From assembly GCA_002688875.1 (NCBI GenBank), contig NZDU01000041.1, forward strand, positions 1 through 48,624: DNA of 48,624 nt, read 5' to 3'. The stretch is from Candidatus Pacearchaeota archaeon. GTDB taxonomy: Archaea > Nanobdellota > Nanobdellia > Pacearchaeales > GW2011-AR1. The notes beneath the pieces are model-generated. The model was not told the DNA's origin. It was given only the letters and a program-made list of their open reading frames with translations, and searched no databases. This document shows, piece by piece, positions 1,975 through 18,437 of the stretch; the stretch's first letter is position 1; every line of letters starts with the position of its first letter. The translations under genes were made by a program, and so were the position numbers.

Positions 1975-2715
1975 ATTATAATGCGCCCGTAAAACTATCC
2001 AGCCTTTAGGCTGTGGATATAAGGGCGCGCGACAGTAGAAACGCTTTTACAATTCTAAGTATTAATAAAAGAGAGTTAGATTGTAACTCTCTCTAGAATT
2101 TCCAGTGATAGTTAGAACTTTCTCAAACTAATTAAATCTTTCTCTTGCTATTGCAAGAGAAAAAAGGAGACAAAAATGAAACAACAAACACTTAGCGAGA
2201 GCTATAAAGAAATTAAATATGAGAAGATCAACCATATGGTTGGAATGTCGATGTGGCACTTTGAGTGGTGCTCAAAGTATAGATATAAAGCTTTCAGGAA
2301 ATGGAAGTACAAAAAGTTAGCAGAAGGTTGCTTACGAAAGGCAGCAACCGAGTATGGAATCAAATGGTTTGAGCTTGATGTTCAACCAAACCATGTTCAT
2401 GGGAGCGCATCCATTCCAATGACCATGACTCCTTCAAAGGCTTTAGGACTTTTGAAAGGAAGAGCATCTAAACTGTTCTTTGAGAGGTGTCCAAATATGA
2501 GACTTCGATACAAGAAGGGGCATTTGTGGAGTCGAGGAAAGTTTGCAGCTTCATTAGGATTTGTCAATCTTGATGTAGTGAACAATTACATCAAGAATCA
2601 AGACAAACATCATAAAACAAAGTGGATTACGGAGTGACTAGAGGTTAGGAAGCTGGGGTCCGGAGCGAAGCGGAGGACTGGCCCGAAGGGCCACCCTTTA
2701 GGGCCCAGAGGATGT
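1975..2715 (+). mobile_element. IS200/IS605-family element (tnpA only); ends approximate
   Basis: tnpA is flanked by GC-rich imperfect hairpins. Left: gcgccc(1983-1988)...gggcgc(2023-2028), enclosing tatccagcc/ggctGTggata. Right: GUCC-GGA-GC-GAA-GC-GGA-GGAC (2658-2678), ggccc-gaa-gggcc (2680-2692), and the alternative gggcc...ggccc (2688-2706). Confidence 0.55.
2176..2637 (+). CDS. tnpA: IS200/IS605-family Y1 (HUH) transposase TnpA, or a RAYT-like relative
   Basis: WHFEWCSKYRYK..., HUH motif in QPNHVHGSASIP, and LWSRGKFAASLG. C-terminal helix VVNNYIKNQ aligns with the catalytic-Tyr helix of IS608 TnpA (VVKQYIENQ). 153 aa. Confidence 0.85.
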   Translation: MKQQTLSESYKEIKYEKINHMVGMSMWHFEWCSKYRYKAFRKWKYKKLAEGCLRKAATEYGIKWFELDVQPNHVHGSASIPMTMTPSKALGLLKGRASKLFFERCPNMRLRYKKGHLWSRGKFAASLGFVNLDVVNNYIKNQDKHHKTKWITE

Positions 2716-3491: not shown

Positions 3492-4385
3492 ATGAAACAT
3501 GTTGAAATGAGGGATAGAGTGGGAACTTTGCTTAGAAAAGATCTTTCTATAGATGAGATCTCAAAAAAATTATCCATTCCAGTTGGGACTCGGTATCAAA
3601 AAGGAAGCGTTAAATGGTATAAGTATTGTTTAGTAGCTAAAGAAAATCAGAAAAGGGCCATCGAGAAACATTCTGATTTGTATAGTCGAGCTGGGAAAAT
3701 TGCTCAACAAAAGCATCCTTGGTTGGGGAGGATGTTGGGTAAGAAGTATGGTCCTATTCAGGGAAAGATAAATGCTAAAAGATTGAAGGGAAATTCTGAT
3801 TATTTCTCGAAAATGGCTAAGAAACTACATAAAATTAATATAAATCATTCTAGAGATAACATGAGGAAAGCTCATGAAACAATGAAGAAGAAAGGAACTT
3901 TTATTGAGCATCAAAGAAAGGCTGCTCTAAAATGTATGGAAAAAAACCCTGGTCAGTTAAAAAATATGTCTAAGGTAGCACATGAAAAGTATTCATTGGC
4001 ATTGTTAGCCCTTGAGAGTAAAAGGAGAAATTATCCTTATAGGTTTATGAATTGTAGTTTTGATTCAAATGAAGAAATGATATTTTGTGAGAAATTAGTT
4101 GAGTTTGGATTAATTGAAAGACCTATTGAGGGGTTAAATGTTCATTTTAGGATTGGAAGATCTCATGTTGATTTTTTTATTCAAAATAGGATATTTATTG
4201 AATATCATCCTCCGAGGAAGTTTGGTAGAGTAATAGAAACAGAAGAAAGCTACCATAATGATAGGAGGAGTTTGTTAAATGCCTATGGATTTAGTAACTA
4301 TCCTTTAATTGTTGTTTCTAATTTGAGGGAGGCCGAGGATAAATTAATGAATGTTAAGAAGCTTATCCAGAATCTTGAAAATTAA
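3492..4385 (+). CDS. HTH protein with NUMOD3-like basic repeats and a C-terminal Vsr/DUF559-like PD-(D/E)xK nuclease-like domain (homing-endonuclease-like)
   Basis: N-terminal LSIDEISKKLSIPVGT (HTH). Repeats such as NHSRDNMRKAHETMKKKG and EHQRKAALKCMEKNPG. C-terminal FDSNEEMIFCEKLVEFGL...GRSHVDFFIQNRIFIEYH. The function call is inference. Confidence 0.55.
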   Translation: MKHVEMRDRVGTLLRKDLSIDEISKKLSIPVGTRYQKGSVKWYKYCLVAKENQKRAIEKHSDLYSRAGKIAQQKHPWLGRMLGKKYGPIQGKINAKRLKGNSDYFSKMAKKLHKININHSRDNMRKAHETMKKKGTFIEHQRKAALKCMEKNPGQLKNMSKVAHEKYSLALLALESKRRNYPYRFMNCSFDSNEEMIFCEKLVEFGLIERPIEGLNVHFRIGRSHVDFFIQNRIFIEYHPPRKFGRVIETEESYHNDRRSLLNAYGFSNYPLIVVSNLREAEDKLMNVKKLIQNLEN

Positions 4386-5643
4386 TTACACTAAAAACTT
4401 TATGCCCTTTTTTTTCAAGTTTTTCCCTTCCGCCTAGGTCATCTAATTCAATAATAAAGGCTATTTCTTCAATCTTACCTTCTAATTTTTGAATTAATTC
4501 AGCCGATGCAAGAGCGGTACCTGCAGTAGCCACCAAGTCGTCGACTAGTAATATGTTTTGGTCGGGTTTTATTGCGTCTTTGTGGATTTCTACTTTGTCG
4601 GTTCCGTATTCTAATTGGTATTCGTGGCTTATTGTTTCGTATGGGAGTTTGTTTGGTTTTCGTATTGGGATTAGTCCGATTCCTAGTTTGTCTGCTAGAA
4701 TTCCTGCGATTATGAATCCACGGGCTTCGATTCCTGCTATGGCGTCGATTGGTTGGTCTTTGTAGCGGTTGTAAAGGATGTTGATTGTTCTTTTCATTGC
4801 TTCTGGATCTAATAATAAGGTTGTTATGTCTCGGAACATGATTCCCGGTTTTGGGAAGTTGGGGATTGTTCTGATTTTGCTTTTTATTAATTGTTGATCT
4901 TTTTTTGCAATTTTTGGGATGACGTTTGTTAGAAGAGTTTTTACTTTTTCTGCGTTTTGTTTCATTGTTTGCATTACCATTTCGAAAGTTACTGGGAATT
5001 CGTCTTCTTTCCAACAATCGTAGTCGGTTGACATTGCTATGCTTGCGTATGGGATTTCTAGTTCCACTGCTAATTGGGCTTCGGGGCATGTGGTCATTCC
5101 GATGATGTCGGCAAAGTTTTTGAACATGAACGATTCGGCTTTTGTTGAGAATCTTGGGCCTTCAATTACCACTATTGTGGCTTTGGAGTGGTGGTTGTAG
5201 TTGAGAAGTTTGGTTTCTTCTATTAGTAATTGTCTTAATTCTTTTGAGAAGGGTTCTGCTGAACTTATGTGTCTTACATCTCCGTATTGATCAGAGAATG
5301 TAAGTTTTCTTAATTTGGTTTGATCTATGAATTGATCTGGGAAAACTAGGTGGCCTGGTTTGATTTCTTCCTTTAAACTGCCAACTGCGCTTGTGGCTAG
5401 GATGTGAGTGCAACCTTCTTGTTTTAGGGCTTTGATGTTGGCTCGGTAGTTTACTTTGGTTGGATAGATCTCATGGTTTTTCCCGTGTCTTGCTAGTATT
5501 ACTACTTCTACTCCGTTTAGTTTACCACATGTTAATTTTGAGCTTGGATCTCCGTAAGGTGTTGTTATTTCTTTTTCGGTGTAGTTTTCTATGAGGTTTG
5601 GGTCGTCTAAACCAGAGCCTCCTATGATTCCTATTTTTACCAT
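4363..5643 (-). CDS. mtnP-apt: Bifunctional fusion: 5'-methylthioadenosine/purine nucleoside phosphorylase (N-terminal, about 4900-5643) and adenine phosphoribosyltransferase (C-terminal, about 4366-4899)
   Basis: N-terminal KIGIIGGSGL...ILARHG...YRANI.AL...GMTTCPEA.LA.E (MTAP/PNP family). C-terminal IRTIPNFPKPGIMFRDITTLL...GIEARGFI...ILLVDDLVATAGT (APRT PRPP motif). Single ORF of 426 aa. Confidence 0.85.
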   Translation of the reverse strand: MVKIGIIGGSGLDDPNLIENYTEKEITTPYGDPSSKLTCGKLNGVEVVILARHGKNHEIYPTKVNYRANIKALKQEGCTHILATSAVGSLKEEIKPGHLVFPDQFIDQTKLRKLTFSDQYGDVRHISSAEPFSKELRQLLIEETKLLNYNHHSKATIVVIEGPRFSTKAESFMFKNFADIIGMTTCPEAQLAVELEIPYASIAMSTDYDCWKEDEFPVTFEMVMQTMKQNAEKVKTLLTNVIPKIAKKDQQLIKSKIRTIPNFPKPGIMFRDITTLLLDPEAMKRTINILYNRYKDQPIDAIAGIEARGFIIAGILADKLGIGLIPIRKPNKLPYETISHEYQLEYGTDKVEIHKDAIKPDQNILLVDDLVATAGTALASAELIQKLEGKIEEIAFIIELDDLGGREKLEKKGHKVFSVINFQDSG

Positions 5644-5705
5644 CTTTTGATAGATAGGATAGTGAGAATTGTTTTTTAAAGATAATAGAAATGTAAAATA
5701 TATAA

Positions 5706-8177
5706 TCAGTATTTATAATGTTCAGATTTGTAAGGGCCTTCGATTGGGATTCCGAGATAGTCTGATTGTTCTTTGGTGAGGGTTGAGAGTTTTACGCCTA
5801 GTCTTTCTAAATGTAGTCGGGCTACTTCTTCGTCTAGTTTTTTTGATAGCATGTAGACTCCGATGGGGTAGTTTTTTTGCCAGAGATCGATTTGGGCTAG
5901 GACTTGGTTTGTGAAGGAGTTGCTCATTACGAAGCTTGAGTGGCCTGTTGCGCATCCTAGATTTACTAGACGTCCTTCGGCTAGAATAAAAATTTCATGT
6001 GATGAGAAGATGTATTTGTCGACTTGGGGTTTGATGTTCAGCCTTGTTATGTCTTGGGCTTGATTTAGTTTTTCCATTTGGATTTCGTTGTCGAAGTGGC
6101 CGATGTTGCAGACTATTGCTTGATCTTTCATGTTTCTCATGTGTTCTAAGGTTATCACGTCTTTGTTTCCAGTTGTTGTTACGTAGATGTCTCCTTCCTT
6201 TAGGGAATCTTCTATCGGTTCAACTTGGAAACCTTCCATAGCTGCTTGTAATGCATTTATTGGGTCGATTTCATTTACTATGACTTTTGCACCGAAGCCA
6301 CGCATGCTTTGGGCGCAGCCTTTTCCTACGTCGCCGTAACCGCAGATGACTGCCGTTTTTCCGGCGATCATTACGTCTGTTGCTCGTTTGATTCCATCGG
6401 CTAGGCTTTCTCGGCATCCGTAAAGATTGTCAAATTTGCTTTTTGTTACTGAATCGTTTACGTTGATTGCGGGGAAAAGTAGTTTTTTTTGTTCTAGCAT
6501 TTGATAGAGTCGATGAACTCCGGTTGTGGTTTCTTCAGAGACCCCTTTGACTTCTCTTCCGATTTTGTGCCAGAAGTTTGGGTCTTCTTGGTATGTGGTT
6601 TTTAGTAAATTCATTAGTTCTCTATAGTCTTCTCCTTCGCTTGAATAATCTTGATTTAGTAAAGATGGGTTGTCTTCGATTTCCATTCCTTTGTGTATCA
6701 TTAGTGTTGCATCACCACCATCGTCTACTATTAGTTGAGGGCCTAGTCCGTTTTTGAAATCTAGGGCGTCTTTAGCTAATTCCCAGTATTCTTTTAGTGT
6801 TTCACCTTTCCAAGCGAAAACTGGGACTCCTATTTTGGCTATTGCTGCTGCGGCATGGTCTTGAGTTGAGAAAATGTTACAGGATGCCCATCTTATGTCG
6901 GCACCTAATTCTTTTAGAGTTTCAATTAGGACTGCGGTTTGGATAGTCATATGTAAGCTTCCAGTGATTCTTACATTTTGTAGTGGTTTTTCTAGTTGAT
7001 ATTTTTTTCTAATGGCCATAAGTCCTGGCATTTCTTTTTCGGCTATTGTGATTTCTTTTCTTCCGAAATCTGCTAGAGAAATATCTTTGATTTTATAATC
7101 TGGATTGTTAGAAATTGTATTTGTATTGTAATTGGGTTTACTGAAATCTTGATTTTGAATTAATGCCTCTTCCATGTTATTTATTTGATTGTTTGAGTTT
7201 AAAAGCTTTATCTCAGTCTGTTGGATAGGTGTTAGTCTTGCCCCTTCGTTTTTTATTACCATTGATGCTATTTTGCTTGCTTGTTTTCCGGCTTCGGATA
7301 AGTGGATGTTGTTTGCTATTCCGTGGAGAATTCCTGCGGCGTATGCGTCTCCGGCTCCGTTGGTGTTTACTACAATTGTTTTTTCTGGTTCTATCCTATG
7401 GACTTCATTGTTTGTTTTGATTAGGCTTCCTTTTTCTCCTAGTTTTACTATTGCTATCTCGGCATGGTCTGCGATGTCGTGTAGGGCTTGTTCTGGGTCT
7501 TTTCCGGTGAAGGCTTTTGCTTCGTCTTCGTTTAGGAAGATTATGTCTACGTGTTCTTTTACGAATTCCTTGAAGAATTGATGGTCGTTTTTTATTATTG
7601 TTGCATCGGATAGGTCTATCGATATTTTGGTTTGGTTTTGTTTTGCTATGTTCACTGCGTGTAGGATGACTTCTTTTGATTTTGGTGCTGCTAGTTGGTA
7701 TCCTTCTAAATGAAGTATTTTTGAATTGGTTATTATGTCGTGGGATAGAGTTTCTAAGTCGAGTTCTGCTGAGGCTCCTAGGTGTGTTGCGAAGGATCTT
7801 TCACCGTCGGGAGTTATTAAGGTTATGGCGTGTCCTGTTGTCTCGTTTTCATGTTTTGATAATTTAGAGGTTGTTACGGTTTCAGAGGTTTTTGTTTCGT
7901 AGATATTTCCATGAGGGTCGTTTCCTATTTTTCCGAAGAAGGCTGTTTTTCCTCCAAGATTTGAAACGCTTGCAATTGTGTTCGAGCAACTTCCTCCAGG
8001 GATTAAGCTTGAAGAATGGAATTCTAGTCTGTCTAATATCGATTTGCTTTCTTCTTTGTTTATTAGTTTCATCTCGCCTTTTTTTAGTCCTAATTCTTGT
8101 AAAAGAGATTCGTCTACATTGTATACTAGATCTAATATTGAATTTCCTATACCAGAAACGTCGTACTCTTTTTCCAT
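5706..8177 (-). CDS. ahcY: Bifunctional fusion: PfkB-family adenosine kinase (N-terminal, about 7230-8177), Asn/Gln-rich linker (about 7104-7229), and S-adenosyl-L-homocysteine hydrolase (C-terminal, about 5709-7103)
   Basis: N-terminal [31 protein letters not shown]...[12 protein letters not shown] (PfkB). C-terminal [28 protein letters not shown]...[16 protein letters not shown]...[11 protein letters not shown]...[12 protein letters not shown] (SAHH with NAD site). Single ORF of 823 aa. Confidence 0.85.
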
Positions 8178-8475
8178 CTTTTATGTTGTTAAGGAAGTTT
8201 TTTGGTTTAAAAAGATATTTGTGATGGGAGTATCTCCGCAGGGATATATTTTTAGTTAAATTCCGAATTGGGCTTGGTGGATTAGTTCATTAACTTTAGT
8301 TAATGAAGGTCACACAATTCTCCCTTATTTTTTCTGAAATGTGCTAAATTACCCTCTATAATCAATAAGCGGACTTGGTTGGTGTTATTCTTGTAGGTTA
8401 CTAAGATCAACTTTTAATTCCTGTGCGGAAATACTGGATGAGAAAGGTTAAAAGGTTCTTAATATTTTGTTTGTT

Positions 8476-9435
8476 ATGAGTGTTCGAAGAAATTATGAGC
8501 CTAAGGAGAAGTTTGTTGAGAGGATGCGGGAGTTGCTTTCTGGGAATGAGGATGTTGAGAGGTATTTTGAGGTTGCGAAATCGGTTCCTTTGAAATCGAT
8601 TAGGGTTAATACACTGAAGATTGGGGTTGATGAGTTGAAGTCTAAGTTGTTGGGGAAAGGATGGGAGGTTAGACAGCCGTTTTCTGAATATCCTGAGATA
8701 ATTATTGTTGATGGGATTGAGCCGGGGGAGATTGGGAAGGCGCGGGAACATTTACTTGGTTATTATTATGTGCAGGAGATAACTAGTATGATGCCGGTTA
8801 TTGCGCTTGGTTTGAGGAAGGATGAGAGGTTTTTGGATTTGTGTGCTAGTCCTGGATCGAAGACGACGCAGGCTGCGATGTTGATGGAGAATACTGGGTC
8901 GATAATTGCTAATGATGTTTCGCTTGGTCGTATATCGATTTTGTCGGCTAATTTGCAGAGGTGTGGGGTTATGAATAGCGTTGTGACTAGGCATCCTGGA
9001 AGTGAGTTGGTTCTTAAGCTTTCTAAATTGGGGATGGGGTTTGATAAGATATTGGTTGATGCGCCTTGTAGTGGGGAGGGGAATATTCGTTGTTCGCCGA
9101 GGACTTATCTTGAATGGAGTGAGAAGTTGTTGAAGTCGATGGGTCGGAAGCAGAAGAAGATTGTTAGTGAGGTTGTCGGGTTGCTTGCTGAAAATGGGGA
9201 GATGGTTTATAGTACTTGTACTCATGCTCCGGAAGAGAATGAAGAGGTTGTGCAGTATTTGATTGATGAGTTTGGTTTGGAGATTGTTCCTGTGAAATTG
9301 CCTTTGAAGGTTCGTCCTGGTTTGTTGTATTGGAGGGGGAAGAAGTTTTCGAAAGAGATGAAGAATGCGGTTAGGATTTATCATCATGATAATGATATGG
9401 AGGGGTTTTTTCTTTGTAAACTTAAAAAATCCTAG
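8476..9435 (+). CDS. NOL1/NOP2/Sun-family RNA cytosine-C5 methyltransferase
   Basis: YYVQEITSM, DLCASPGSKT, DAPCSGEG and YSTCT motifs. The start was moved to the ATG at 8476 because the track start is TTG. Confidence 0.85.
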   Translation: MSVRRNYEPKEKFVERMRELLSGNEDVERYFEVAKSVPLKSIRVNTLKIGVDELKSKLLGKGWEVRQPFSEYPEIIIVDGIEPGEIGKAREHLLGYYYVQEITSMMPVIALGLRKDERFLDLCASPGSKTTQAAMLMENTGSIIANDVSLGRISILSANLQRCGVMNSVVTRHPGSELVLKLSKLGMGFDKILVDAPCSGEGNIRCSPRTYLEWSEKLLKSMGRKQKKIVSEVVGLLAENGEMVYSTCTHAPEENEEVVQYLIDEFGLEIVPVKLPLKVRPGLLYWRGKKFSKEMKNAVRIYHHDNDMEGFFLCKLKKS

Positions 9436-9971: not shown

Positions 9972-11267
9972 ATGAAAAAATCTTTTAAGAAAGCTAAGGT
10001 AGGGGATGAAGTTGAAGTTATTGTTAATGGGAAGAGTGAGAATGGGAGGTTGTTGGAGAGTTATGATGTTGGGGTTGTTTTGTTGAAGTTGGAAAATGGG
10101 TATAATGTTGGGTTTAAGAGGGAGGATGTTTCGGAGATTAAGGTTGTTCGGGAGAGGAAGGTTGATTCTAAGAAAGATGAGGGGGTTAAGGTGAGTGGTA
10201 GGAAGCCGGTGATTGAGATGATTGTGACGGGGGGGACTATAAGTAGTAAGTTGGATAGTTCGACGGGGGGGGTTGAGGGGTTGATTGATAATAATGAGTT
10301 GTTGAAGATGTATCCGGAGATTTTTGAGATTGCGGATTTTAGGATTAAGAGTCCGTTTATGAAAGTTAGTGAGAATATGACTCCTGTGGATTGGATTAAG
10401 ATTGCTAAGTTGGTTGGGAAGGCTTTGAATGATCCGGGGGTTAAGGGAGTTATAGTTAGTCATGGGACTGATACTTTGCATTATACTGCGTCGGCGTTGT
10501 CGTTTATGTTGGGGAAGTTGAATAAGCCGGTTGTTTTGACTTATAGTCAGAGGAGTTCGGATCGTGGGAGTAGTGATGCTAGGATGAATTTGATATGTTC
10601 GGTTCGTGCGGCGCTTTCGGATGTTAGTGAGGTGATGTTGGTTGGGCATGCGACTATTAATGATGATTATTGTTTTATGTTGCAGGGGAATAAGTGTAGG
10701 AAGTTGCATAGTTCTAGGAGGGATACTTTTAGGCCGGTTAATTGTAAACCTTATGGGAAGATATGGCCGGATGGGAAGATGGAGATGATTAGGAATGATT
10801 ATAGGAAGAGGAATAAAAATGAGGTTGAGGTGGATGCGGTTTTTGATCCTAAGGTTGGATTGTTTAAAGCCCATCCTGCTAGCAATCCTTCTATTTTGGA
10901 TTATTATAAAAAGAATTGTAAGGGGTTGGTGATTGAGGGGACTGGATTTGGGCATGTGATAACTGAGGGGAAGAGTAATTGGTTGCCGAAGTTGAAGGAG
11001 GCTATGGGTAAGGGGTTGTTGATTTATATGGCAAGTCAGACGATTTTTGGGCGTGTCGATTCTTATGTTTATAGTCCTGGGAGGAAGATTGCGGATAGTG
11101 GGGTTGTGTTTTTGGGGGATATGTTATCGGAGACTGCGTTGGTTAAATTGGGATGGGTGTTGGGGCATAAGGATTGGCGCGGATCTGTGAGTACTAAGTT
11201 GAAGATGTTGGAGAATGTTAGTGGGGAGTTTAATGATAGGTTGGATGAGGGGTTTTTGGAAATGTAA
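9972..11267 (+). CDS. gatD: Glu-tRNA(Gln) amidotransferase subunit D
   Basis: Asparaginase-like core: MIVTGGTISS, VSHGTDTLHYTA, GTGFGH. The N-terminal GatD-specific domain is present. Confidence 0.9.
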   Translation: MKKSFKKAKVGDEVEVIVNGKSENGRLLESYDVGVVLLKLENGYNVGFKREDVSEIKVVRERKVDSKKDEGVKVSGRKPVIEMIVTGGTISSKLDSSTGGVEGLIDNNELLKMYPEIFEIADFRIKSPFMKVSENMTPVDWIKIAKLVGKALNDPGVKGVIVSHGTDTLHYTASALSFMLGKLNKPVVLTYSQRSSDRGSSDARMNLICSVRAALSDVSEVMLVGHATINDDYCFMLQGNKCRKLHSSRRDTFRPVNCKPYGKIWPDGKMEMIRNDYRKRNKNEVEVDAVFDPKVGLFKAHPASNPSILDYYKKNCKGLVIEGTGFGHVITEGKSNWLPKLKEAMGKGLLIYMASQTIFGRVDSYVYSPGRKIADSGVVFLGDMLSETALVKLGWVLGHKDWRGSVSTKLKMLENVSGEFNDRLDEGFLEM

Positions 11268-11302
11268 TAATATTTATAAATATGATTTTTTGTTAATAGT
11301 CT

Positions 11303-11521
11303 ATGGGATATAGTGAAAGATTTGAAAGAGTTATGGAAGGATTAGCTGAATTATCTAGGTCTGGTAATTATGAAGCTAGTATGGTGGCTAGACCTCATCT
11401 GAGATATTTGACACATCATACTGCTAAGGGTTATATGCATGAATCTGGAGGGAATCGTGTGGATTTGGATCCGCTTGAGAGATTTATTTCTAATTGTCTG
11501 AGTACTAGTGTTTCAGAATAA
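11303..11521 (+). CDS. Hypothetical protein (72 aa), unskewed class
   Basis: ORF track. TATA tttataaat lies about 28 nt upstream. Confidence 0.4.
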   Translation: MGYSERFERVMEGLAELSRSGNYEASMVARPHLRYLTHHTAKGYMHESGGNRVDLDPLERFISNCLSTSVSE

Positions 11522-11574
11522 TTTGTAATCTAGATTACCTAAATCTTTTAAAATTGATTTTGTTTCTTAGAGTT

Positions 11575-12498
11575 ATGAAAATTTTAGTTACAGGAGGTAG
11601 TGGATTTATAGGAAGTTGGGTTGTTGATAGGTTGGTTGATGGGGGTTATGAGGTTGTTGTGGTGGATAAGGTTAGGTATGATTGGATAAATAAGGATAGG
11701 GTTCAGTTTTGTGAGTGTGATATTTTGGATAGTGAGGGGTTGAATGGGGTTTTTGAGAGGGAGGGGTTTGATCTTGTTATTCATATGGCTGCTAATACTT
11801 TGCTTCGTAAGAGTATTGAGGATCCGATGTATGATGCTCGGTTGAATATTTTGGGGTCGATAAGTGTGTTGGAATGTTGTAGGAAGAATGGTGTTGAGAA
11901 ATTGATTTATACTTCTACTGGAGGGGCGAGGGTTGGGGAGCCTAAGTATTTACCTGTTGATGAGAAGCATCCTTTGAATCCTATGAGTCCTTATGGGATA
12001 TCGAAGCATAGTGTTGAGCATTATGTGGAGATGTACGGGGAGTTGTATGGTATTGATTATTTTATATTTTGTTTTGGAAATGTTTATGGGCCGAGGGATA
12101 GTGTTGATACTAAAAGATTGGTTCCGGTGTTTTTGGATAAGTTTCTTAAGAAGGAGAGGCCGATGATATTTGGGGATGGGGGGAAGACTAGGGATTTTAT
12201 TTATGTGATGGATTTGGTAGATTTTATGATTGGGAGTATTGATAAGATGGGCAAGACTGAGAATAGGTTGTTTCATTTGGCTAATGGTAAGGAGGTTAGT
12301 GTTAATGAGATGGTTAGGATTATGAAGGAGGTTAGTGGTTCGGATGTTGAGCCCTTGAAAGTTGATGAGATTAAGGGAGAAGTTGATAGGATTGTTTTGG
12401 ATACTCGACTTGCTAGGGAGGAATTGGGGTGGAATCCTGAGACTAGTATTGAAGAGGGGTTGAGGAAGAGTTGGGAGTGGGTTGAGGGTCGGGATTGA
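11575..12498 (+). CDS. NAD-dependent epimerase/dehydratase (GalE-like SDR)
   Basis: MKILVTGGSGFIGS (Rossmann motif) and YGISK (YxxxK). Start taken at the ATG at 11575. Confidence 0.85.
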   Translation: MKILVTGGSGFIGSWVVDRLVDGGYEVVVVDKVRYDWINKDRVQFCECDILDSEGLNGVFEREGFDLVIHMAANTLLRKSIEDPMYDARLNILGSISVLECCRKNGVEKLIYTSTGGARVGEPKYLPVDEKHPLNPMSPYGISKHSVEHYVEMYGELYGIDYFIFCFGNVYGPRDSVDTKRLVPVFLDKFLKKERPMIFGDGGKTRDFIYVMDLVDFMIGSIDKMGKTENRLFHLANGKEVSVNEMVRIMKEVSGSDVEPLKVDEIKGEVDRIVLDTRLAREELGWNPETSIEEGLRKSWEWVEGRD

Positions 12499-12505
12499 TT
12501 TCTAC

Positions 12506-12590
12506 GCTTTCGGATTTGACTTCGTCTAAATCCTTCGCTAAAGTGTTGGTAGTGCTAAATAATTATTAGATCGAGATTGTGGTTTTCTTT
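12506..12590 (+). repeat. Modular intergenic element, copy L1 (hairpin + M1 + TATA-like + M2)
   Basis: Hairpin ggatttga-CTTCG-tctaaatcc (12512-12533), gttggta (12545-12551), taaataat (12556-12563), gagattgtggttttcttt (12573-12590). Confidence 0.7.
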
Positions 12591-12622
12591 GAAGTTGAAT
12601 ATAACTTAATAGATTGTGATTA

Positions 12623-13123
12623 TTATCTTTTATTAAATTTTCTTTCGATTCTGTTTAGTTGTTTTTTCATTTCTCTTATTTCTTTCTCTGCAACACGGTT
12701 AACTTTGTAGTCGTATTCTGCTCTTAGTCTGTCTCTTTCTGCGGCTCGATTTTGCGACATTAATATTACTGGGGCTTGGAGTGCTGCAAGGCATGAAAGG
12801 ACTAAGTTTAATAATATGAAGGGGTAGGGGTCGAAGGGTTGTCCTGATTGGTATTTTGACCAGTAGTATGTGTTGACGATTATCCAGAGGATTAGGATTG
12901 CGATGAATCCTAGGATGAATGTCCAGGATCCAGCCCATTTTGCTAAGCCGTCGGAGGTTTTTTGTCCTATGGTTAATTTTCTTTTGTCTTGGAAAGGTAT
13001 TTTTATTCCTTTAGTTAATTTAGAAGTTATTTTTTCAACTTTTTTCTCTGTTTTTTTTAGATCTGTTGTTATAGAGTTGTTTTTTATTATTAGTTTTTTT
13101 TGGTTTGCGTTCTTGCGTGGCAT
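12623..13123 (-). CDS. DUF1003-family membrane protein
   Basis: GSWTFILGF...FDPYPFILLNLVLSCLAALQAPVILMSQNRAAERDR...DY.VN..AE.EI is the DUF1003 signature. Confidence 0.8.
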   Translation of the reverse strand: MPRKNANQKKLIIKNNSITTDLKKTEKKVEKITSKLTKGIKIPFQDKRKLTIGQKTSDGLAKWAGSWTFILGFIAILILWIIVNTYYWSKYQSGQPFDPYPFILLNLVLSCLAALQAPVILMSQNRAAERDRLRAEYDYKVNRVAEKEIREMKKQLNRIERKFNKR

Positions 13124-13182
13124 TTTATCACTTCTCTTTTGTTTGTGAAAGGTTAAGAGGTTTATATAGGTTTTTCTTGGGG

Positions 13183-13216
13183 GGTTTTATAGGGGTTTTA
13201 CTGGAGGTTTTACTGG
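13183..13216. repeat. Three GGTTTTA(T/C) repeats spaced about 11-12 nt apart in a divergent promoter region
   Basis: ggttttat (13183-13190), ggttttactgg (13194-13204) and ggttttactgg (13206-13216), read directly. Confidence 0.6.
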
Positions 13217-13284
13217 GGTGGAGTTGTAACTAAGTAGTGGTTATAAATGGGAAGGTTTATAAGTGTGGGATAGGTTGATTTTTT

Positions 13285-14112
13285 ATGGTAAGGTTAATTC
13301 AGGTCTTGAGTGAAGCGAAAGGTTCAAATCATGGAGGTGTATGTAGATTTGATTTTCCGAAGACTAGTGATAATAATAATGAATTTTATGTGAAGCATTG
13401 TAGTAGAATGAATCATAAAGGAGATAGTAGTTTTGCTTATCAGCATCAACCGGTTTATGAGGCGGTCACTTGTGAAATGGCAAGAATATTGGGTCTTGAG
13501 ACTCCAAATTTTTATGTTCTAATGAATGATCAAGATAACTTGGGATTTGTATCTTTTGGGGGGCAGAAAATGGATATTAAGCCTCATCAACCTTTTTATT
13601 TTGCGTCTGAAATGTTAGTTCATCCAAAAAATGAGAGTATTAGCGAGGCTGCTAAAATCTTAGAACAAGAAGAATTCTATTTGAATATGTTAATGATTTC
13701 AGATGTCGTTGGTAAAAAGAATAATTATATTCATGATCCTCATTCTGATCGAGTGATTTATGTTGATTTGGGGTGTAATATTGTTGATGCTCATGAAAAT
13801 ATTATGGCGTTTAAAACAAGACATAAATCTCCATTAAAGAAAAAAGATAGAAGGAATGCTGTGAAAAAGTTTAGTAGATATGAAATTGTAACTAAGAAAG
13901 GCGAAGGGGGTAAAATTGGCTTGATGGATTTTTTGGAATCTCCAAGAGATATGAAATTACTTTCTTTGAATCCAAGGGGAAATGTTAGATTAGATTCTTT
14001 AATCCCTAAGATTGAAATTGATGAAATTGTTGAGAGATTGATAGCTGGATTGTATTTGGGTAAGGGACTTTCAAAAAATGGTGATAACATTTATCTTAAT
14101 AGAATTAAATAA
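13285..14112 (+). CDS. Hypothetical protein (275 aa), unskewed class
   Basis: ORF track. TATA aggtttataag lies about 30 nt upstream. No secure family. Confidence 0.55.
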   Translation: MVRLIQVLSEAKGSNHGGVCRFDFPKTSDNNNEFYVKHCSRMNHKGDSSFAYQHQPVYEAVTCEMARILGLETPNFYVLMNDQDNLGFVSFGGQKMDIKPHQPFYFASEMLVHPKNESISEAAKILEQEEFYLNMLMISDVVGKKNNYIHDPHSDRVIYVDLGCNIVDAHENIMAFKTRHKSPLKKKDRRNAVKKFSRYEIVTKKGEGGKIGLMDFLESPRDMKLLSLNPRGNVRLDSLIPKIEIDEIVERLIAGLYLGKGLSKNGDNIYLNRIK

Positions 14113-14152
14113 TTTTCAATACATTTATTAATTTATATTTCTAGATTGTTTT

Positions 14153-15670
14153 ATGGTTAAGATCAAATCTGGGATAGAGATTCATCAGCAATTGGATACT
14201 CACAAGTTGTTTTGTGAATGTCCTTCGGTGTTGAGGAGTGATGATGCTTCTTTTAAGATTAATAGGAAATTGCATGCTGTGGTTGGGGAAGAAGGTAAGG
14301 TTGATGTTGCGGCTGAGCATGAGGCCTTGTTGGATCGGGAGTTTGTTTATGAAGGGTTTGATAGTACTTGTTTGGTTGAGCTGGATGAGGAACCGCCTAG
14401 GTTGATTAATTTGGAGGCCTTGGAAATTGGATTGCATGTTGCTATGTTGTTGAATTGTGAGATAGTTCCGATTTCGCAGATTATGAGGAAGACTGTTGTT
14501 GATGGTTCGAATACTAGTGGGTTTCAGAGGACTGTTTTGATAGCTCGGGACGGGTATGTTGAGACGGAGAGTGGGAGGGTTGGGATTGATAATGTTTCTT
14601 TAGAGGAGGATTCGGCTAGAGTTGTTGGGGGGAAAGGTGGAAGTGGTAAGGGTGGGGGTGGGGATGGTAGTGATGAAGATGATAATGATGAAAATGATGA
14701 AGATGGGAAGAGTGGAAGTGGGAAGAAGACTTATAGGTTGGATAGATTGGGGATTCCGTTGATTGAGATTGGGACTGCGCCAGATATTAAAACGGCTGAG
14801 CAGGCTAAGGGGGTTGCTTTGCATTTGGGAGATATACTTAGGAGTTGTAAGGTTAAGCGAGGGATTGGGACAATAAGGCAGGATGTTAATGTTTCTATTT
14901 CTGGGCATCCGAGAGTTGAGATTAAAGGGTTTCAGGATGTTAAGATGTTTGTTCCTACGATTGAGAAAGAGGTTTTACGTCAGGGGAAGAATTTGGGTAA
15001 GGTTGGGAAGAAAGGTAATGAGTTAAAGGGAGAGGTTAGGAATGCTCTTGCTGATGGGAGTAGTGAGTTCTTACGGCCGATGCCAGGGAGTGCTAGGATG
15101 TATCCTGAGACGGATTTGCCTTTGCTTCGGATTGAGAAGAAGATTATTGATAAGGCTAAGAGGAGTTTGCCTAAACTTAGGAGTGAGGTTAAGAAGGAAT
15201 TGGTTAAGAAGGGGTTGATGGAGGAGGAAGTAAGTGGGTTGTTGAAAAGTGGGAAGATTGAGGAGTTTAATGGATTGTTTAAGATTCTTAGGGATAGTAG
15301 GTTTGTGTTTAGGATTTTGATTGAGATTCCTAAGGAAATTGGAAGGAAGGAAGGGAAGGATGCTGAATCGGTTGATGATTTGTTGACGATTGATGTTGTG
15401 GAGAGGATTGTTGATGGAGTTAGTAAGGGGGAGATTGATAGAGGTGATGTTAAGCATGTTATGGAGGAGATTGTTAAGGGTAAGTCGGTTGAAGATGCTA
15501 TTGGAATGGAGAAGGTGGATCTGGGAGATGTTGAAAGTGAGATTGTTAAGTTGGTTAAGAAGAAGCCGGGGCTTTCTGTTGGGGGGTATATGGGGTTGAT
15601 AATGAAAGAGTTTAAGGGGAAGGTGAGTGGGAAGGAAGTTAGTGAGATACTTGGAAAGTTAGTTAAGTGA
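14153..15670 (+). CDS. gatE: Glu-tRNA(Gln) amidotransferase subunit E, short form with a Gly/Asp/Glu low-complexity insert
   Basis: GIEIHQQLDTHKLFCEC, CLVELDEEPP, RKTVVDGSNTSGFQRT, YRLDRLGIPLIEI and RQDVNVS. 505 aa. Confidence 0.85.
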   Translation: MVKIKSGIEIHQQLDTHKLFCECPSVLRSDDASFKINRKLHAVVGEEGKVDVAAEHEALLDREFVYEGFDSTCLVELDEEPPRLINLEALEIGLHVAMLLNCEIVPISQIMRKTVVDGSNTSGFQRTVLIARDGYVETESGRVGIDNVSLEEDSARVVGGKGGSGKGGGGDGSDEDDNDENDEDGKSGSGKKTYRLDRLGIPLIEIGTAPDIKTAEQAKGVALHLGDILRSCKVKRGIGTIRQDVNVSISGHPRVEIKGFQDVKMFVPTIEKEVLRQGKNLGKVGKKGNELKGEVRNALADGSSEFLRPMPGSARMYPETDLPLLRIEKKIIDKAKRSLPKLRSEVKKELVKKGLMEEEVSGLLKSGKIEEFNGLFKILRDSRFVFRILIEIPKEIGRKEGKDAESVDDLLTIDVVERIVDGVSKGEIDRGDVKHVMEEIVKGKSVEDAIGMEKVDLGDVESEIVKLVKKKPGLSVGGYMGLIMKEFKGKVSGKEVSEILGKLVK

Positions 15671-15703
15671 TAGATTTATAAATTCTTGTTAGATTGTTTT
15701 AAG

Positions 15704-17110
15704 ATGCTTAGAACACATAATATTGGTGAGGTTAATGAAAAGTTAGTTGGGAAGAAGGTAAAGCTTTGTGGGTGGGTGGATAGTATTAGGGAGCATGGGA
15801 AGGTTATTTTTCTTGATGTTAGAGATAGGTATAGTAAAATTCAGGCTGTGATTGTTAAGAGTAATGGTGATTTTGGTTTGGCTAAGGGGTTGACGAAGGA
15901 GAGTTGTGTGTTGGTTGAAGGAGAGGTTAATGCTCGGCCGAAGGGGACAGAGAATAAGGAGTTGAGTACTGGTAATGTGGAGTTGTTTATTGGGAAGCTT
16001 GAGGTTTTGAGTAAGAGTCCTGCCTTGCCGTTTGAGATTAATGAGGGAATTGAGAATGAAGAGCTTCGATTGAAGTATAGGTTTTTGGATTTGAGGAGTG
16101 AGAGGATGCATAAAAATATTATGTTGAGGAGTGATACATTACATGCAATTAGGGATTTTTATCATAATGAGGGTTTTGCTGAAATTGAAACTCCGATATT
16201 GGCGAAGTCGACTCCTGAAGGAGCTAGAGATTATTTGGTGCCTAGTAGAAATTTTAAGGGGAAGTTTTATGCTTTGCCACAATCGCCTCAATTGTTTAAA
16301 CAATTATCTCAGGTTGCAGGGTTTGATAAATATATACAAATTGCTAGATGTTTTAGAGATGAGGATTTGAGGAGTGATAGGCAACCGGAGTTTACGCAGA
16401 TAGATGTTGAGATGTCGTTTATAGAGCAGGATGATATTATTGAGAAAACTGAAAAAATGCTTGTTGAGGTTTTTGATAAAGTTTTAGGGGTCAAGGTTAA
16501 GACTCCATTTCCTAGAATTGGTTATGATGAGGCTATGAAAAAATATGGGAGTGATGCTCCAGATCTTCGGAAGGATAAAGGTGATAAGAAAGAGTTTGCG
16601 TTTTGTTGGGTAGTTGATTTTCCGTTGTTTGAGAAAAGTGATAATAGATGTAAGAGCACACATCATCCATTTACGATGCCTGTTGTTGGTAAAAATAAAT
16701 TGGATTTTGATTCAGGTAGTAAGTCAGTTGCTTATGATGTGGTTTTGAATGGGGTGGAGATTGGTGGTGGGAGTATAAGGATTCATGATTCTGATATTCA
16801 GGAGAAGGTTTTTGATATTTTGAAGCTTTCAAAAAATGAGGTTAAGGATAAGTTTGGGTTTTTGTTGGATGCTCTTAGTTTTGGTGCTCCGCCTCATGGA
16901 GGTATTGCCTTAGGGTTTGATCGTCTTATGCAGATAATGAGTGGAGAGGAGAGTATTAGGGAAGTAATTGCATATCCTAAAAATAAGGAGGCTAGGGATG
17001 TTATGTTGGATGCGCCTTCGGATGTTGATAATAAACAGTTGAAAGAGTTGGGAATAGAAGTTTTGAATAGTGGTAAAAAAAAGAGTGGTAAGAAAGGGAA
17101 GAAGAAATAA
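15704..17110 (+). CDS. aspS: Aspartyl-tRNA synthetase, bacterial type, without the GAD insertion domain
   Basis: MLRTHNIGEV...KLCGWV, YALPQSPQLFKQ, CFRDEDLRSDRQPEFTQIDVEMSF, HHPFTMP and GAPPHGGIALGFDRL. Start taken at the ATG at 15704. Confidence 0.9.
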   Translation: MLRTHNIGEVNEKLVGKKVKLCGWVDSIREHGKVIFLDVRDRYSKIQAVIVKSNGDFGLAKGLTKESCVLVEGEVNARPKGTENKELSTGNVELFIGKLEVLSKSPALPFEINEGIENEELRLKYRFLDLRSERMHKNIMLRSDTLHAIRDFYHNEGFAEIETPILAKSTPEGARDYLVPSRNFKGKFYALPQSPQLFKQLSQVAGFDKYIQIARCFRDEDLRSDRQPEFTQIDVEMSFIEQDDIIEKTEKMLVEVFDKVLGVKVKTPFPRIGYDEAMKKYGSDAPDLRKDKGDKKEFAFCWVVDFPLFEKSDNRCKSTHHPFTMPVVGKNKLDFDSGSKSVAYDVVLNGVEIGGGSIRIHDSDIQEKVFDILKLSKNEVKDKFGFLLDALSFGAPPHGGIALGFDRLMQIMSGEESIREVIAYPKNKEARDVMLDAPSDVDNKQLKELGIEVLNSGKKKSGKKGKKK

Positions 17111-17888
17111 GATAAGGATTCTAGCTATTGGAGATCCGCATGGAGATCTTGAAAAGATAAAAAAGATTCCTGTTGAGAATGTTGATTTAATATTGATTCC
17201 TGGGGATTTGAGTAAGGCTGATATTGCTCGGAAGATAAATTTTGGTAGAATTAATGGGAAGGAGAGTAGTGATGCCTTGAAGAGGAAAGCTTTTATGGAG
17301 ATTTATAAAAGTACATTTGCAGTTCTTAGATATTTGGGTAAGAAAGCTCCCGTATATTATATCTGGGGAGATTTTGATTATAGCGATAAGGCGGTTAAAA
17401 AAGGTATTAAAGATTTTGGAAGTAGTTTGCCTTTTTTTAGTAAGGAGTTTAAGAAGATTGATAATGTAAGGGCTATTAGGGATAAGAAAGTTAGGTTTAG
17501 AGGGTTGAGTATTGGAGGGTTAGAGAGGTTTGAGGATGTGAATTGGGTTCGGGATTTTAGGCCGGATGAGTTTGATAAGAGGATGAAAGTTGCTAGGAAA
17601 GAGACAAAGAGGGCTAAGAAGATTCTTGGTAAGTTTGGGAAGGTAGATATATTGTTGTGTCATCAGCCTCCATTTGAGGTGCTTGATAAAGTTAGTAACC
17701 CTGTTGCCCCTAAGAGGTGGAATGGGAAGAATGCGGGGAGTGAGTTAATATTGGATTATGTTAAGAAGAAAAAACCTAAGTATGTTTTTTGTGGGCATAT
17801 TCATGAAGGGAAGGGGATGAAGAAGGTTGGGAAGACTGTTGTTTTTAATTTGGGATGTTGTGGGTGGAAGGTTGTTGAGATTGAATAA
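17070..17888 (+). CDS. Calcineurin-like metallophosphoesterase
   Basis: ILAIGDPHGD, GDL, LLCHQPP and CGHIHEG motifs. There is no ATG before the GDPHG motif, so the start is uncertain (GTG at 17070 or 17085). It overlaps the aspS 3' end. Confidence 0.7.
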   Translation: MVKKRVVRKGRRNKIRILAIGDPHGDLEKIKKIPVENVDLILIPGDLSKADIARKINFGRINGKESSDALKRKAFMEIYKSTFAVLRYLGKKAPVYYIWGDFDYSDKAVKKGIKDFGSSLPFFSKEFKKIDNVRAIRDKKVRFRGLSIGGLERFEDVNWVRDFRPDEFDKRMKVARKETKRAKKILGKFGKVDILLCHQPPFEVLDKVSNPVAPKRWNGKNAGSELILDYVKKKKPKYVFCGHIHEGKGMKKVGKTVVFNLGCCGWKVVEIE

Positions 17889-17918
17889 TTTTATATAATG
17901 ATTATTTCTTAGTAAGTT

Positions 17919-18164
17919 ATGGATAAGAAGGTTATTGATAAGAAAGTTGTAGGGAAGGAAGCGAAGGGGATTCTTGATAAGTTTGCTAAGGCTCTTGAGA
18001 GGGTTGATTCTAAGGATAGTGATAGCTGGTTTGTGGATAGGGATGAGTTTGAGAGGGAGGAGGGGAAAGGGGAGAAGTGTTGGGAGTTTAAGGAGAAGTT
18101 TTTGGGGAATGCTCCGAGGGTGGATGGGGATTTTGTGGTTGCGGAGAAAGGAGGGTGGAAGTGA
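17919..18164 (+). CDS. gatC: GatC-like amidotransferase subunit (tentative)
   Basis: ILDKFAKALERVD...FKEKFLGNAPRVDGDFVVAEKGGW resembles the GatC C-terminal half (..nAP...dGyf.VP). Sits immediately upstream of gatA. Confidence 0.5.
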   Translation: MDKKVIDKKVVGKEAKGILDKFAKALERVDSKDSDSWFVDRDEFEREEGKGEKCWEFKEKFLGNAPRVDGDFVVAEKGGWK

Positions 18165-18436: not shown

Positions 18437-18437
18437 A

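Follow-up and report, generated by a model that had tools for sequence, protein, structure and literature searches.

Two adjacent genes on the minus strand of a 48,624-nt stretch of Candidatus Pacearchaeota DNA (the whole analysed stretch is referred to as the window) appear to encode one truly bifunctional enzyme each; the host is a DPANN-type archaeon, tiny and of symbiotic type. We give a probability of roughly three in four to this reading taken together with the function in the salvage of SAM by-products and the origin by gene fusion proposed below. The gene at 5706–8177 (−) is a single 823-aa ORF in which an adenosine-kinase-like PfkB domain is followed by a linker and S-adenosylhomocysteine (SAH) hydrolase (SAHH). 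The gene at 4363–5643 (−) is a single 426-aa ORF combining 5′-methylthioadenosine (MTA) phosphorylase (MTAP) with adenine phosphoribosyltransferase (APRT). There is no stop codon inside either of them, and ORF reading places both exactly where a preliminary description of the window had put them. The adenosine produced by SAHH is the substrate of adenosine kinase (ADK), and the adenine produced by MTAP is the substrate of APRT. Judging by domain identities and established enzymology, each fusion appears to pair enzymes of consecutive reactions, as had been proposed, and SAH and MTA would probably be turned straight into AMP. Catalytic motifs are kept in all four domains.

In the 823-aa protein Pfam recognizes PfkB at residues 52–315 (168 bits), AdoHcyase at residues 360–822 (477 bits), and AdoHcyase_NAD at residues 584–745. 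The kinase half (residues 1–322; 7212–8177 (−)) and the SAHH half (residues 358–823; 5709–7106 (−), with the stop codon at 5706–5708) are joined by a low-complexity, non-conserved linker of 35 aa (residues 323–357), which we place at 7107–7211 (−); 7104–7229 was given previously for the joint. The length of the linker varies from 17 to 50 aa among homologues, and its sequence is only 12% identical, against 51% in the kinase domain and 76% in the SAHH domain. It contains Met335, encoded at 7173–7175 (−); a Met no more than 12 residues away from the N-terminal motif of SAHH is present in 31 of 36 fused homologues, with a chance expectation of 27%. Met335 is probably a relic start codon of an ancestral ahcY gene, and the conserved internal Met could also permit production of free SAHH. 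A flexible 35-aa linker by itself is no implication of channelling.

The SAHH half matches the NCBIfam model TIGR00936 (ahcY) with 617 bits at a cut-off of 498 and belongs to the long (bacterial/plant/protist) type. It aligns over its full length with 6uk3 (696 bits) and end to end with other long-type enzymes (5v96, 3ond, 4lvc, 3ce6, 1v8b), while archaeal-type SAHH/SIHH structures give merely ~310–340 bits. Alignment with mammalian enzymes is broken in two, the second stretch starting from segment position 186, which puts the extra ~41 aa at about residues 502–542 (6552–6674 (−)), just N-terminal of the SEETTTGV motif (residues 547–554). The insert of about 40 aa before this motif, noticed earlier in the unaligned sequence, is thus present.

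Pfam assigns residues 3–242 of the 426-aa protein to PNP_UDP_1 and residues 280–420 to Pribosyltran. The MTAP domain (residues 1–249; 4897–5643 (−)) passes TIGR01694 (307 bits, cut-off 275), matches human MTAP 1cb0 with 292 bits, and keeps the motifs ARHG, TSAVGS, GMTT, and TDYDCW. The APRT domain (residues 250–426; 4366–4896 (−)) passes TIGR01090 (apt; 224 bits, cut-off 186, residues 253–421), matches the solved APRTs 7y94, 7xi2, and 2dy0 with 189 bits, and contains FPKPGIMFRDIT, EARGF, RKPNKLP, EYQLEYG, and VDDLVATAGT. Motifs of both halves are invariant in 55 homologues. The domains abut with no linker at residues 249/250 (4896/4897 of the window, previously estimated as about 4900), and in the AF2 model (pLDDT 88.8, pTM 0.71) one unbroken predicted helix, residues 220–255, crosses the joint.

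Both architectures recur widely in independent contigs of JGI, ENA, NCBI, and Logan assemblies. With proteins clustered at 90% identity, the kinase-SAHH fusion has ~45 full-length homologous clusters (56–75% identity), found both in DPANN archaea and in bacteria of the CPR. The MTAP-APRT fusion has at least 120 clusters (63–96% identity), all with both domains and 407–455 aa long. Continuous ORFs, domain calls, and this recurrence bear out the earlier view that both genes are genuine fusions.

Relatives also carry unfused versions. In Gammaproteobacteria, with Aliidiomarina maris (L052) and a Pseudomonadota MAG (L059) as the loci read, pfkB and ahcY are adjacent, co-directional, and separate; in one Moraniibacteriota contig (L009) they are overlapping separate genes, versus the fused 812-aa ORF in a close relative (L010). 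In a further locus (L093) pfkB is followed, after a 5-nt gap with SD-like GGGGAGGG, by ahcY and then by the MTAP-APRT fusion, and a stand-alone kinase (P0405) is 82% identical. As in the window, all four gene pairs have a homologous kinase immediately upstream of SAHH and co-oriented with it, and in L093 MTAP-APRT lies directly downstream of ahcY. The difference is that a stop and a restart separate the paired genes (40–47-nt gaps, the 5-nt SD-like gap, or a 23-nt overlap), whereas in the window the stop is absent. The kinase-SAHH fusion was probably born from an ancestral pfkB-ahcY pair through loss of the stop codon, with the old ahcY start Met left in the linker; in the lineage of the window it lies next to the MTAP-APRT fusion, which is probably the older of the two. 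The four activities are linked repeatedly: L005/L006 and L091 show the order of the window, and L093 shows it with kinase and SAHH split. Adjacency of the two fusions is confined to the subclade to which the window belongs; archaeal and CPR genomes at a greater distance have one fusion, with the other not nearby. The idea that the pair forms a four-domain module is supported as a recurrent linkage, with direct adjacency of the fusions limited to this subclade.

We propose that the C-terminal SAHH domain would split SAH into homocysteine and adenosine, and that the N-terminal PfkB domain would convert adenosine and ATP to AMP. Since the SAHH equilibrium lies on the side of SAH synthesis and is pulled by ADK (PMC8190896), a kinase tethered at a fixed 1:1 stoichiometry would keep local adenosine low and make removal of SAH effectively irreversible. 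The MTAP domain would release adenine from MTA (probably from 5′-deoxyadenosine too) using phosphate, and the rigidly attached APRT domain would convert adenine and PRPP to AMP. A compact locus with both fusions would detoxify SAM by-products and recover the adenine ring. In this scheme we infer kinase substrate specificity, kinetic coupling, oligomeric state, and physiological role.

The same four activities, exactly as annotated, could also be accommodated without any channelling or kinetic benefit, if the fusions were neutral ‘Rosetta-stone’ products of genome streamlining that merely fix co-expression and stoichiometry; in very compact genomes adjoining operon genes would lose the stop codon and spacer between them. 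We regard this as a real, if not the favoured, possibility. Split and fused forms alternate in close relatives (L009 versus L010, L093 versus the window, P0405), so fusion is not required for function, and in a tree built from SAHH only the unfused SAHHs are nested among the fused ones. The unconserved linker and the retained relic start Met also fit neutral fusion. The MTAP-APRT joint, in contrast, is tight, length-conserved across its clusters, and predicted to be a single rigid helix, and it looks selected, while the kinase-SAHH frame is kept down to 56% identity across two domains of life.

The salvage reading further depends on the substrate of the kinase. Were it ribose, inosine/guanosine, ribose-1-phosphate, or a sugar, SAH hydrolysis would be unlinked to AMP. 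Sequence is a poor predictor of PfkB specificity, JGI names homologues merely ‘sugar/nucleoside kinase’, and no NCBIfam family was reached at cut-off in a scan of the kinase half: the best match had 122 bits (5-dehydro-2-deoxygluconokinase) versus a cut-off of 300, followed by inosine/guanosine kinase with 115 bits. The name ‘adenosine kinase’ is consequently based on conserved motifs and on ~38% similarity to entries from structural genomics. Yet the top solved relatives are 3ubo, an ‘adenosine kinase’ (6e-49), and 4e3a (1e-45), while sugar-kinase structures reach 1e-22 or worse, and adenosine-kinase entries score ~90 bits higher than any of them. Alignments to adenosine kinases and inosine-guanosine kinase begin near residue 7 and take in the N-terminal lid segment, whereas those to ribokinases and sugar kinases begin only at about residue 57. 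ADK-equivalent residues N12, D16, G61-G62-S63, N66, R127, Y160, and N273-GAG-D277 are kept, with counterparts of ADK N14, D18, G63-G64-S65, N68, R132, F170, and D300 conserved, and the positions that correspond to the ribose, adenine-stacking, and catalytic residues of ADK do not vary in 11 fused homologues. NCBI gives the name adenosine kinase to unfused homologues with 48–58% identity, and the kinase is repeatedly linked or fused with the very enzyme, SAHH, whose reaction liberates adenosine. A substrate other than adenosine is therefore improbable, and the PfkB half appears to belong, as initially suggested, to the nucleoside/adenosine-kinase branch and not to the sugar-kinase branch.

That frameshifts or chimeras of separate genes created the fused ORFs is close to refuted: although the genes occupy different frames in L009 and L093 and NCBI annotates just a 472-aa SAHH on the 38,104-bp L010 contig, the ORF there is unbroken over 812 aa, the identical window protein (P0001) is found on 4 contigs from several sources, and diverged clusters with differing linker lengths (~45 for one fusion, at least 120 for the other) keep the frame. 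Neither the literature nor the domain databases yielded a paper or curated family for either architecture, in line with the preliminary description, which suggested, subject to a database check, that neither had been characterized. Neither is rare, and both are already present in public databases under names for a single function, for example ‘adenosylhomocysteinase’ and ‘S-methyl-5′-thioadenosine phosphorylase’. The fusions are made of ordinary enzymes and recur in many genomes.

The two genes are separated by a 62-nt spacer (5644–5705 (−)), in which a TTTAAAAA box (5673–5680 (−)), some 34 nt ahead of the start codon of MTAP-APRT, may be an archaeal TATA box. A TTTTTAAA box (8206–8213 (−)), some 33 nt ahead of the kinase-SAHH start codon, may likewise function as a promoter. 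With an A/T-rich promoter-like box apparently present before each gene, it is not established that the two form one operon. The divergent neighbour at 8467–9435 (+) encodes an RsmB/F (NOL1/Nop2-type) SAM-dependent RNA methyltransferase (PF01189, PF17125) and is a conserved flank, also found at L005, L006, L091, and L089. Of four SAM-dependent enzymes previously listed for the window, this one and a TRM5/TYW2 methyltransferase (21157–22017) pass the Pfam threshold, a putative class I methyltransferase (24234–24986) has a sub-threshold match (Methyltransf_11, E = 0.0095), and Taw3/TYW3 was not found by Pfam in 42 window ORFs, a set that comprises nearly every ORF of 150 aa or more and four smaller ones but not ~25 others of 80–150 aa. 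The earlier suggestion of a likely lack of de novo purine synthesis goes beyond what 48 kb can show; in the literature, de novo nucleotide pathways are present in only about one-quarter of Pacearchaeota genomes (PMC8407392). Apart from the fusions, the strand GC skew of the window is extraordinary.

The representative library contains other elaborated SAHH proteins, namely tandem SAHH duplications, MerR-SAHH, and forms extended at the N terminus, which resemble the window protein in having an extra module on the SAHH core. Of the top 150 SAHH representatives the ten longest were scanned, and none of these ten contained a PfkB domain; kinase-SAHH is an architecture distinct from these forms. 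In the activated methyl cycle SAHH (EC 3.13.2.1) and adenosine kinase (EC 2.7.1.20) are separate enzymes; their non-covalent interaction has been reported in Arabidopsis, and the pair is used in in vitro SAM regeneration cascades. The window fusion would share with them the two reactions, their order, and the rationale of a pull by ADK (PMC8190896). The SAHH-ADK interaction has been reported from plants (PMC7367456), and a study in Psilocybe characterized the two jointly as enzymes of SAM salvage (PMC7317531). The SAHH half is of the same long, insert-bearing type as the plant and many bacterial enzymes. Unlike the separate enzymes, the window protein unites both in a single polypeptide, in which the kinase comes first and is followed, in its family, by a flexible 17–50-aa linker; its kinase is of the bacterial 3ubo/4e3a-like PfkB clade, just 27% identical to human ADK, and its DPANN and CPR hosts set it apart from separate SAHH/ADK systems.

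Human-type MTAP followed by APRT is the classical salvage route for adenine released from MTA. The MTAP-APRT fusion would carry out the same two reactions; it matches 1cb0 and the APRTs 2dy0 and 7y94 strongly and keeps the catalytic motifs, and no solved chain with both domains was found among the structures compared. Where human MTAP has a C-terminal tail of ~20 residues, the window protein instead has a directly abutting APRT domain, with a single predicted helix through the joint.

Two co-oriented open reading frames lie on the minus strand exactly where the preliminary description had placed them, at 5706-8177 and 4363-5643, with a 62-nt spacer in between. The first encodes an 823-aa kinase-SAHH protein, in which a PfkB domain (residues 52-315) is followed by the AdoHcyase and AdoHcyase_NAD domains of S-adenosylhomocysteine hydrolase (SAHH; residues 360-822). 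The second encodes a 426-aa MTAP-APRT protein, in which PNP_UDP_1 of MTA phosphorylase (3-242) precedes Pribosyltran of adenine phosphoribosyltransferase (280-420; all Pfam assignments). The kinase-SAHH architecture recurs in ~45 clusters at 56-75% identity, on contigs of up to 322 kb from JGI, ENA, NCBI and Logan. That of MTAP-APRT was found in all 120 of the 120 best clusters listed (63-96% identity, 407-455 aa), so that its cluster count is at least 120. Where homologues of the two fusions are named, they belong to MAGs of Pacearchaeota, Woesearchaeota and 'Nanoarchaeota', and these names point to a DPANN-type archaeon as the probable source; loci of relatives were read directly on 12 contigs. 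Averaged over 42 full-length kinase-SAHH proteins, the kinase is 51%, SAHH 76% and the linker 12% identical to the window protein; the linker is 17-50 aa long in the 23 proteins where it was measurable and is crossed by an open frame in all 42. Because the frame is kept through the linker in every one of these 42, a frameshift or chimera cannot explain kinase-SAHH, and the recurrence of full-length ORFs rules out an assembly artefact for either fusion. Continuous ORFs and recurrence on independent contigs thus bear out the earlier claim that both genes are real fusions.

In a whole-library search at 50% identity, full-length kinase-SAHH was not among the best 150 matches, probably because fused proteins are clustered there under plain SAHH representatives. 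Domain scanning covered the ten longest of these 150 SAHH matches and showed tandem SAHHs, a MerR-SAHH and proteins with N-terminal extensions; the representative library holds tandem double SAHHs of ~800 aa and a 614-aa MerR-HTH-SAHH (P0265, P0312, P0330, P0242).

The kinase half scores 168 bits with PF00294 (PfkB; Pfam gathering score 25.8), and no NCBIfam kinase model scored above its cut-off for it. Its best solved relatives are 3ubo, deposited as 'adenosine kinase' (170 bits, 6e-49), and 4e3a (159 bits), followed by inosine-guanosine kinase (83 bits) and eukaryotic adenosine kinases; sugar kinases and ribokinases align only from about residue 57 onward, without the N-terminal lid segment. 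PGGS (60-63) and NGAGD (273-277) are invariant in 11 fused homologues. For comparison we used key residues of human adenosine kinase (ADK), namely N14, D18, G63-G64-S65, N68 (ribose binding), R132, F170 (adenine stacking) and D300 (catalytic base). In an alignment to the human sequence, N12, D16, G61-G62-S63, N66, R127, Y160 and D277 occupy these positions. D16, G61, S63, N66, R127, Y160 and D277 are invariant across the 11 fused homologues and G62 is at least 90% conserved; the N14 equivalent varies, and at position 12 six of the other ten fused proteins have Ser. NCBI applies the name 'adenosine kinase' to unfused homologues that are 48-58% identical and belong to Woesearchaeota, Pacearchaeota, Nanoarchaeota, Moranbacteria and Parcubacteria. 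By its residues and its closest relatives alike, the kinase half fits a predicted adenosine kinase (EC 2.7.1.20). A stand-alone 344-aa kinase, P0405, on a 3.7-kb JGI contig is 82% identical to the window kinase domain; it may come from a close relative in which the gene split very recently, shows a frameshift or was called too short.

The assignment of the SAHH half rests on 617 bits with TIGR00936 (NCBIfam cut-off 497.6), with PF05221 (477 bits, profile positions 1-299) and PF00670 (264 bits) covering the substrate- and NAD-binding domains. The motifs SEETTTGV (547-554), GYGDVGKG (613-620; the NAD-binding GxGxxG) and HFDNEI (694-699) are kept, as is the C-terminal K..Y tail (YKSEHYKY). This half aligns end to end, at up to 696 bits, with long-type enzymes of protists, plants, rhizobia and mycobacteria; the alignment is unbroken to 6uk3, 3ond, 3ce6 and 1v8b but broken against the mammalian 431-aa enzymes. 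The insert of about 40 aa noticed earlier was found as ~41 aa at about residues 502-542, in the substrate-binding domain, and mammalian enzymes do not have it. As judged from these alignments, the SAHH half is of the long (bacterial/plant/protist) type. The archaeal-type SAHH / S-inosylhomocysteine hydrolase structures (7r37-7r3a) reach 312-340 bits, compared with 600-696 for long-type SAHH, and were rejected as its nearest relatives.

Both halves of MTAP-APRT also score above curated NCBIfam cut-offs. TIGR01694 (MTAP) scores 307 bits against a cut-off of 274.85, and the match to human MTAP 292 bits; the R-H, T-A, M-T and D-Y-D motifs are found as ARHG (51-54), TSAVGS (84-89), GMTT (182-185) and TDYDCW (206-211), with R52, H53, D207 and D209 invariant in 55 homologues. 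TIGR01090 (apt) scores 224 bits against 185.85, and the acidic PRPP-binding loop of APRT is VDDLVATAGT (367-376), with D368 and D369 invariant in the same 55.

The two joints differ in character. In kinase-SAHH the halves are connected by a flexible linker of low complexity (residues 323-357; 7107-7211, minus strand). In MTAP-APRT the domains abut without a linker, solved MTAPs matching residues 2-249 and solved APRTs residues 250-423, and in an AlphaFold2 model built with 55 homologues (pLDDT 88.8, pTM 0.71) a single predicted helix, 220-255, spans the joint and would make it rigid. The model of the 823-aa kinase-SAHH protein, run without an alignment, has a pLDDT of 37.5, too low for use. 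In 31 of 36 fused homologues a methionine occurs no more than 12 residues from DYKVKD, the motif at the SAHH N-terminus, most commonly at -5 (27% expected by chance), and can be read as the putative fossil start codon of a once-separate ahcY. In the window protein, Met335 (7173-7175) has been displaced 25 residues upstream by a lineage-specific insertion.

A series of split and fused forms was assembled by scanning GTDB genomes with the kinase alignment, followed by local tblastn and ORF reading; no DPANN genome was among the matches listed in that scan. In Aliidiomarina maris and a Pseudomonadota MAG, pfkB and ahcY are separate genes with a gap of 40-47 nt, and in one Moraniibacteriota locus (L009) they lie in different frames with a 23-nt overlap. 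Another (L010; Candidatus Moraniibacteriota, JBAQUL010000029.1) has at 5962-8400 an unbroken 812-aa kinase-SAHH ORF. An NCBI record of 38,104 bp, the same size as this contig, lists only a 472-aa adenosylhomocysteinase starting from an internal Met; thus, the fusion is under-annotated. A kinase-SAHH fusion also shares a contig with the bacterial ribosomal protein bL19 (L001/L002). Together with the Moraniibacteriota ORF, this places the fusion in both CPR bacteria and DPANN archaea; on the archaeal side, Cbf5 lies on the L003 locus and RpoN and Rpr2 on the contigs of homologues P0013 and P0017.

The Moraniibacteriota proteins group together in a neighbour-joining (NJ) tree without support values; their clade is sister to the window clade, and another archaeal group branches off outside the two. 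The pattern hints at a possible transfer of kinase-SAHH between domains of life. This tree and an SAHH-only NJ tree, likewise without support values, suggest a single origin but do not prove it. In the SAHH-only tree, unfused SAHHs are nested among fused ones, so fission, repeated fusion or exchange must have happened. The best unfused SAHH matches (L007 and L008, 76-78% identity) have no kinase neighbour and are therefore uninformative on how the fusion arose.

The preliminary description had treated the two fusions as one module. They do adjoin each other, in the order RsmB/NOL1 (divergent), kinase-SAHH, MTAP-APRT, both in the window and, at 75% identity, in L091, but more distant kinase-SAHH genes lie elsewhere in their genomes, so the claim holds for part of the family. 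The same order, with a 96-aa ORF in between, was found in L005/L006 (68% identity), and two further adjacencies are suggested by proteins on contigs of equal length (P0005 and P0134, 10,089 bp; P0007 and P0147, 7,270 bp). One locus (L089) has RsmB, a small ORF, MTAP-APRT and, farther on, PolB, without kinase-SAHH; another (L090) has MTAP-APRT and PolB without RsmB. These layouts, and the distant kinase-SAHH genes located elsewhere, indicate that MTAP-APRT is the older and wider fusion. Either kinase-SAHH was inserted beside it in the window subclade, or it was lost there in other lineages. In L093 (1029-4812) the window order recurs in a much more diverged set in which pfkB (338 aa) and ahcY (472 aa) are unfused, separated by 5 nt with an SD-like GGGGAGGG ahead of the ahcY start, and are followed by an MTAP-APRT fusion (426 aa), with 38%, 78% and 57% identity to the window kinase, SAHH and MTAP-APRT, respectively. 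That all four activities again lie together in a cluster is the strongest evidence for joint action, and the locus is a possible natural control for comparing fused and split forms. Two A/T boxes read by eye, TTTTTAAA (8206-8213) and TTTAAAAA (5673-5680), each lie ~33-34 nt upstream of the ATG of kinase-SAHH and MTAP-APRT, respectively; we consider separate promoters and one operon equally probable.

The other window genes are archaeal: an MCM helicase with an intein (37589-40630, minus strand, 1013 aa; Intein_splicing and LAGLIDADG_3 within residues 439-746), GatD/GatE, TBP, ribosomal protein L15e, ATP-dependent DNA ligase and FtsZ. The MCM intein carries a LAGLIDADG homing-endonuclease domain. 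A plus-strand tRNA-dependent amidation cluster (9972-19787) comprises GatD (9972-11267), a GatE/GatB-type subunit (14153-15670), a class II Asp/Asn/Lys-type tRNA synthetase (15686-17110) and a GatA-like amidase (18330-19787). Among the 42 window ORFs submitted to Pfam, Taw3, which the preliminary description had listed, was not detected above threshold, nor was a spermidine synthase or any other source of MTA. At 21157-22017 (plus strand), a TRM5/TYW2-family enzyme would, if it acts as Taw2, release MTA by transferring the aminocarboxypropyl group of SAM, and an Orn/Arg/DAP-type PLP decarboxylase at 25380-26453 (minus strand) may belong to polyamine synthesis; both are possible MTA sources.

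The strands differ to an extreme degree in composition, with a plus-strand GC skew of +0.35 for the whole window. Measured at third codon positions, the skew ranges from +0.57 to +1.00 in genes sampled from 2.2 to 46 kb, in either orientation, with two exceptions: an IS200-like Y1 transposase (2176-2637, plus strand; PF01797, 5.6e-26; +0.30) and a TrmB-type regulator (22518-23261; +0.17). The skew is reversed in two genes at 634-1481 (-0.67 and -0.97), and its sign switches at ~1500-2000, directly beside the transposase. Locus-wide skew is near zero in L003, L005 and L010 and lies between -0.21 and +0.17 at the other loci measured, with absolute values of 0.14-0.21 in L001, L091 and L093. The pattern resembles that of a replication origin or terminus at which mutation is biased between the strands to an unusual extent.

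SAHH releases adenosine and homocysteine from SAH with an equilibrium toward SAH, and so runs 'uphill' unless adenosine is removed; MTAP frees adenine, which APRT turns into AMP. We put the probability that both proteins are truly bifunctional and run these sequential pairs of reactions at roughly three in four. Fusion would secure 1:1 stoichiometry and proximity of the consecutive enzymes. Adenosine kinase makes the SAHH sequence irreversible (PMC8190896). De novo nucleotide pathways were found in only ~24.5% of Pacearchaeota genomes in one survey (PMC8407392). A far-reaching interpretation, which we consider doubtful, is that kinase-SAHH is an adaptive 'ATP-driven SAH hydrolase', moved horizontally between ultra-small DPANN and Moraniibacteriota-type CPR episymbionts, which in the window lineage, with MTAP-APRT, would channel all adenosyl by-products of SAM to AMP in purine-auxotrophic cells. 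It possibly extends to higher-order assemblies such as a D3 hexamer of MTAP trimers and APRT dimers. MTAP is a trimer, APRT a dimer and SAHH a tetramer, and assemblies deduced from these states are speculation. For kinase-SAHH, the flexible linker and the persisting split forms favour no more than proximity or co-expression; the modelled rigid joint makes MTAP-APRT look the more designed of the two.

The preliminary description knew of no characterisation of either architecture, and our searches agree: the full-text literature search yielded no description of either fusion, NCBIfam has no 'bifunctional' model for them, and no solved chain covers both halves of either protein. Both are numerous in public databases under single-function names. 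With at least one fused ORF annotated only from an internal Met, this means that metabolic reconstructions of these organisms under-count adenosine kinase and APRT. The value of the two proteins lies in the naturally occurring series of fused and split genes, in the distribution over DPANN and CPR, and in a possible use in SAM-recycling biocatalysis. The presence of both forms among close relatives allows tests of the kinetic gain of fusion. Kinase-SAHH, common to DPANN archaea and CPR bacteria, is a further probable example of genes exchanged between domains among episymbionts, and MTAP-APRT, widespread in Pacearchaeota-like archaea, offers a second and, by its model, structurally rigid case for adenine hand-over. 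As far as is known, SAH and MTA limit every reaction that uses SAM through product inhibition. The answer of minimal cells to this problem would be revealed by a natural covalent SAHH-adenosine kinase. Fusion of consecutive enzymes is a familiar evolutionary theme. SAHH and ADK are reported to be brought together non-covalently in plants (PMC7367456) and have been characterised together as SAM-salvage enzymes of Psilocybe (PMC7317531); SAM-regeneration cascades already pair them as separate enzymes (PMC8190896), and kinase-SAHH could serve directly in such cascades.
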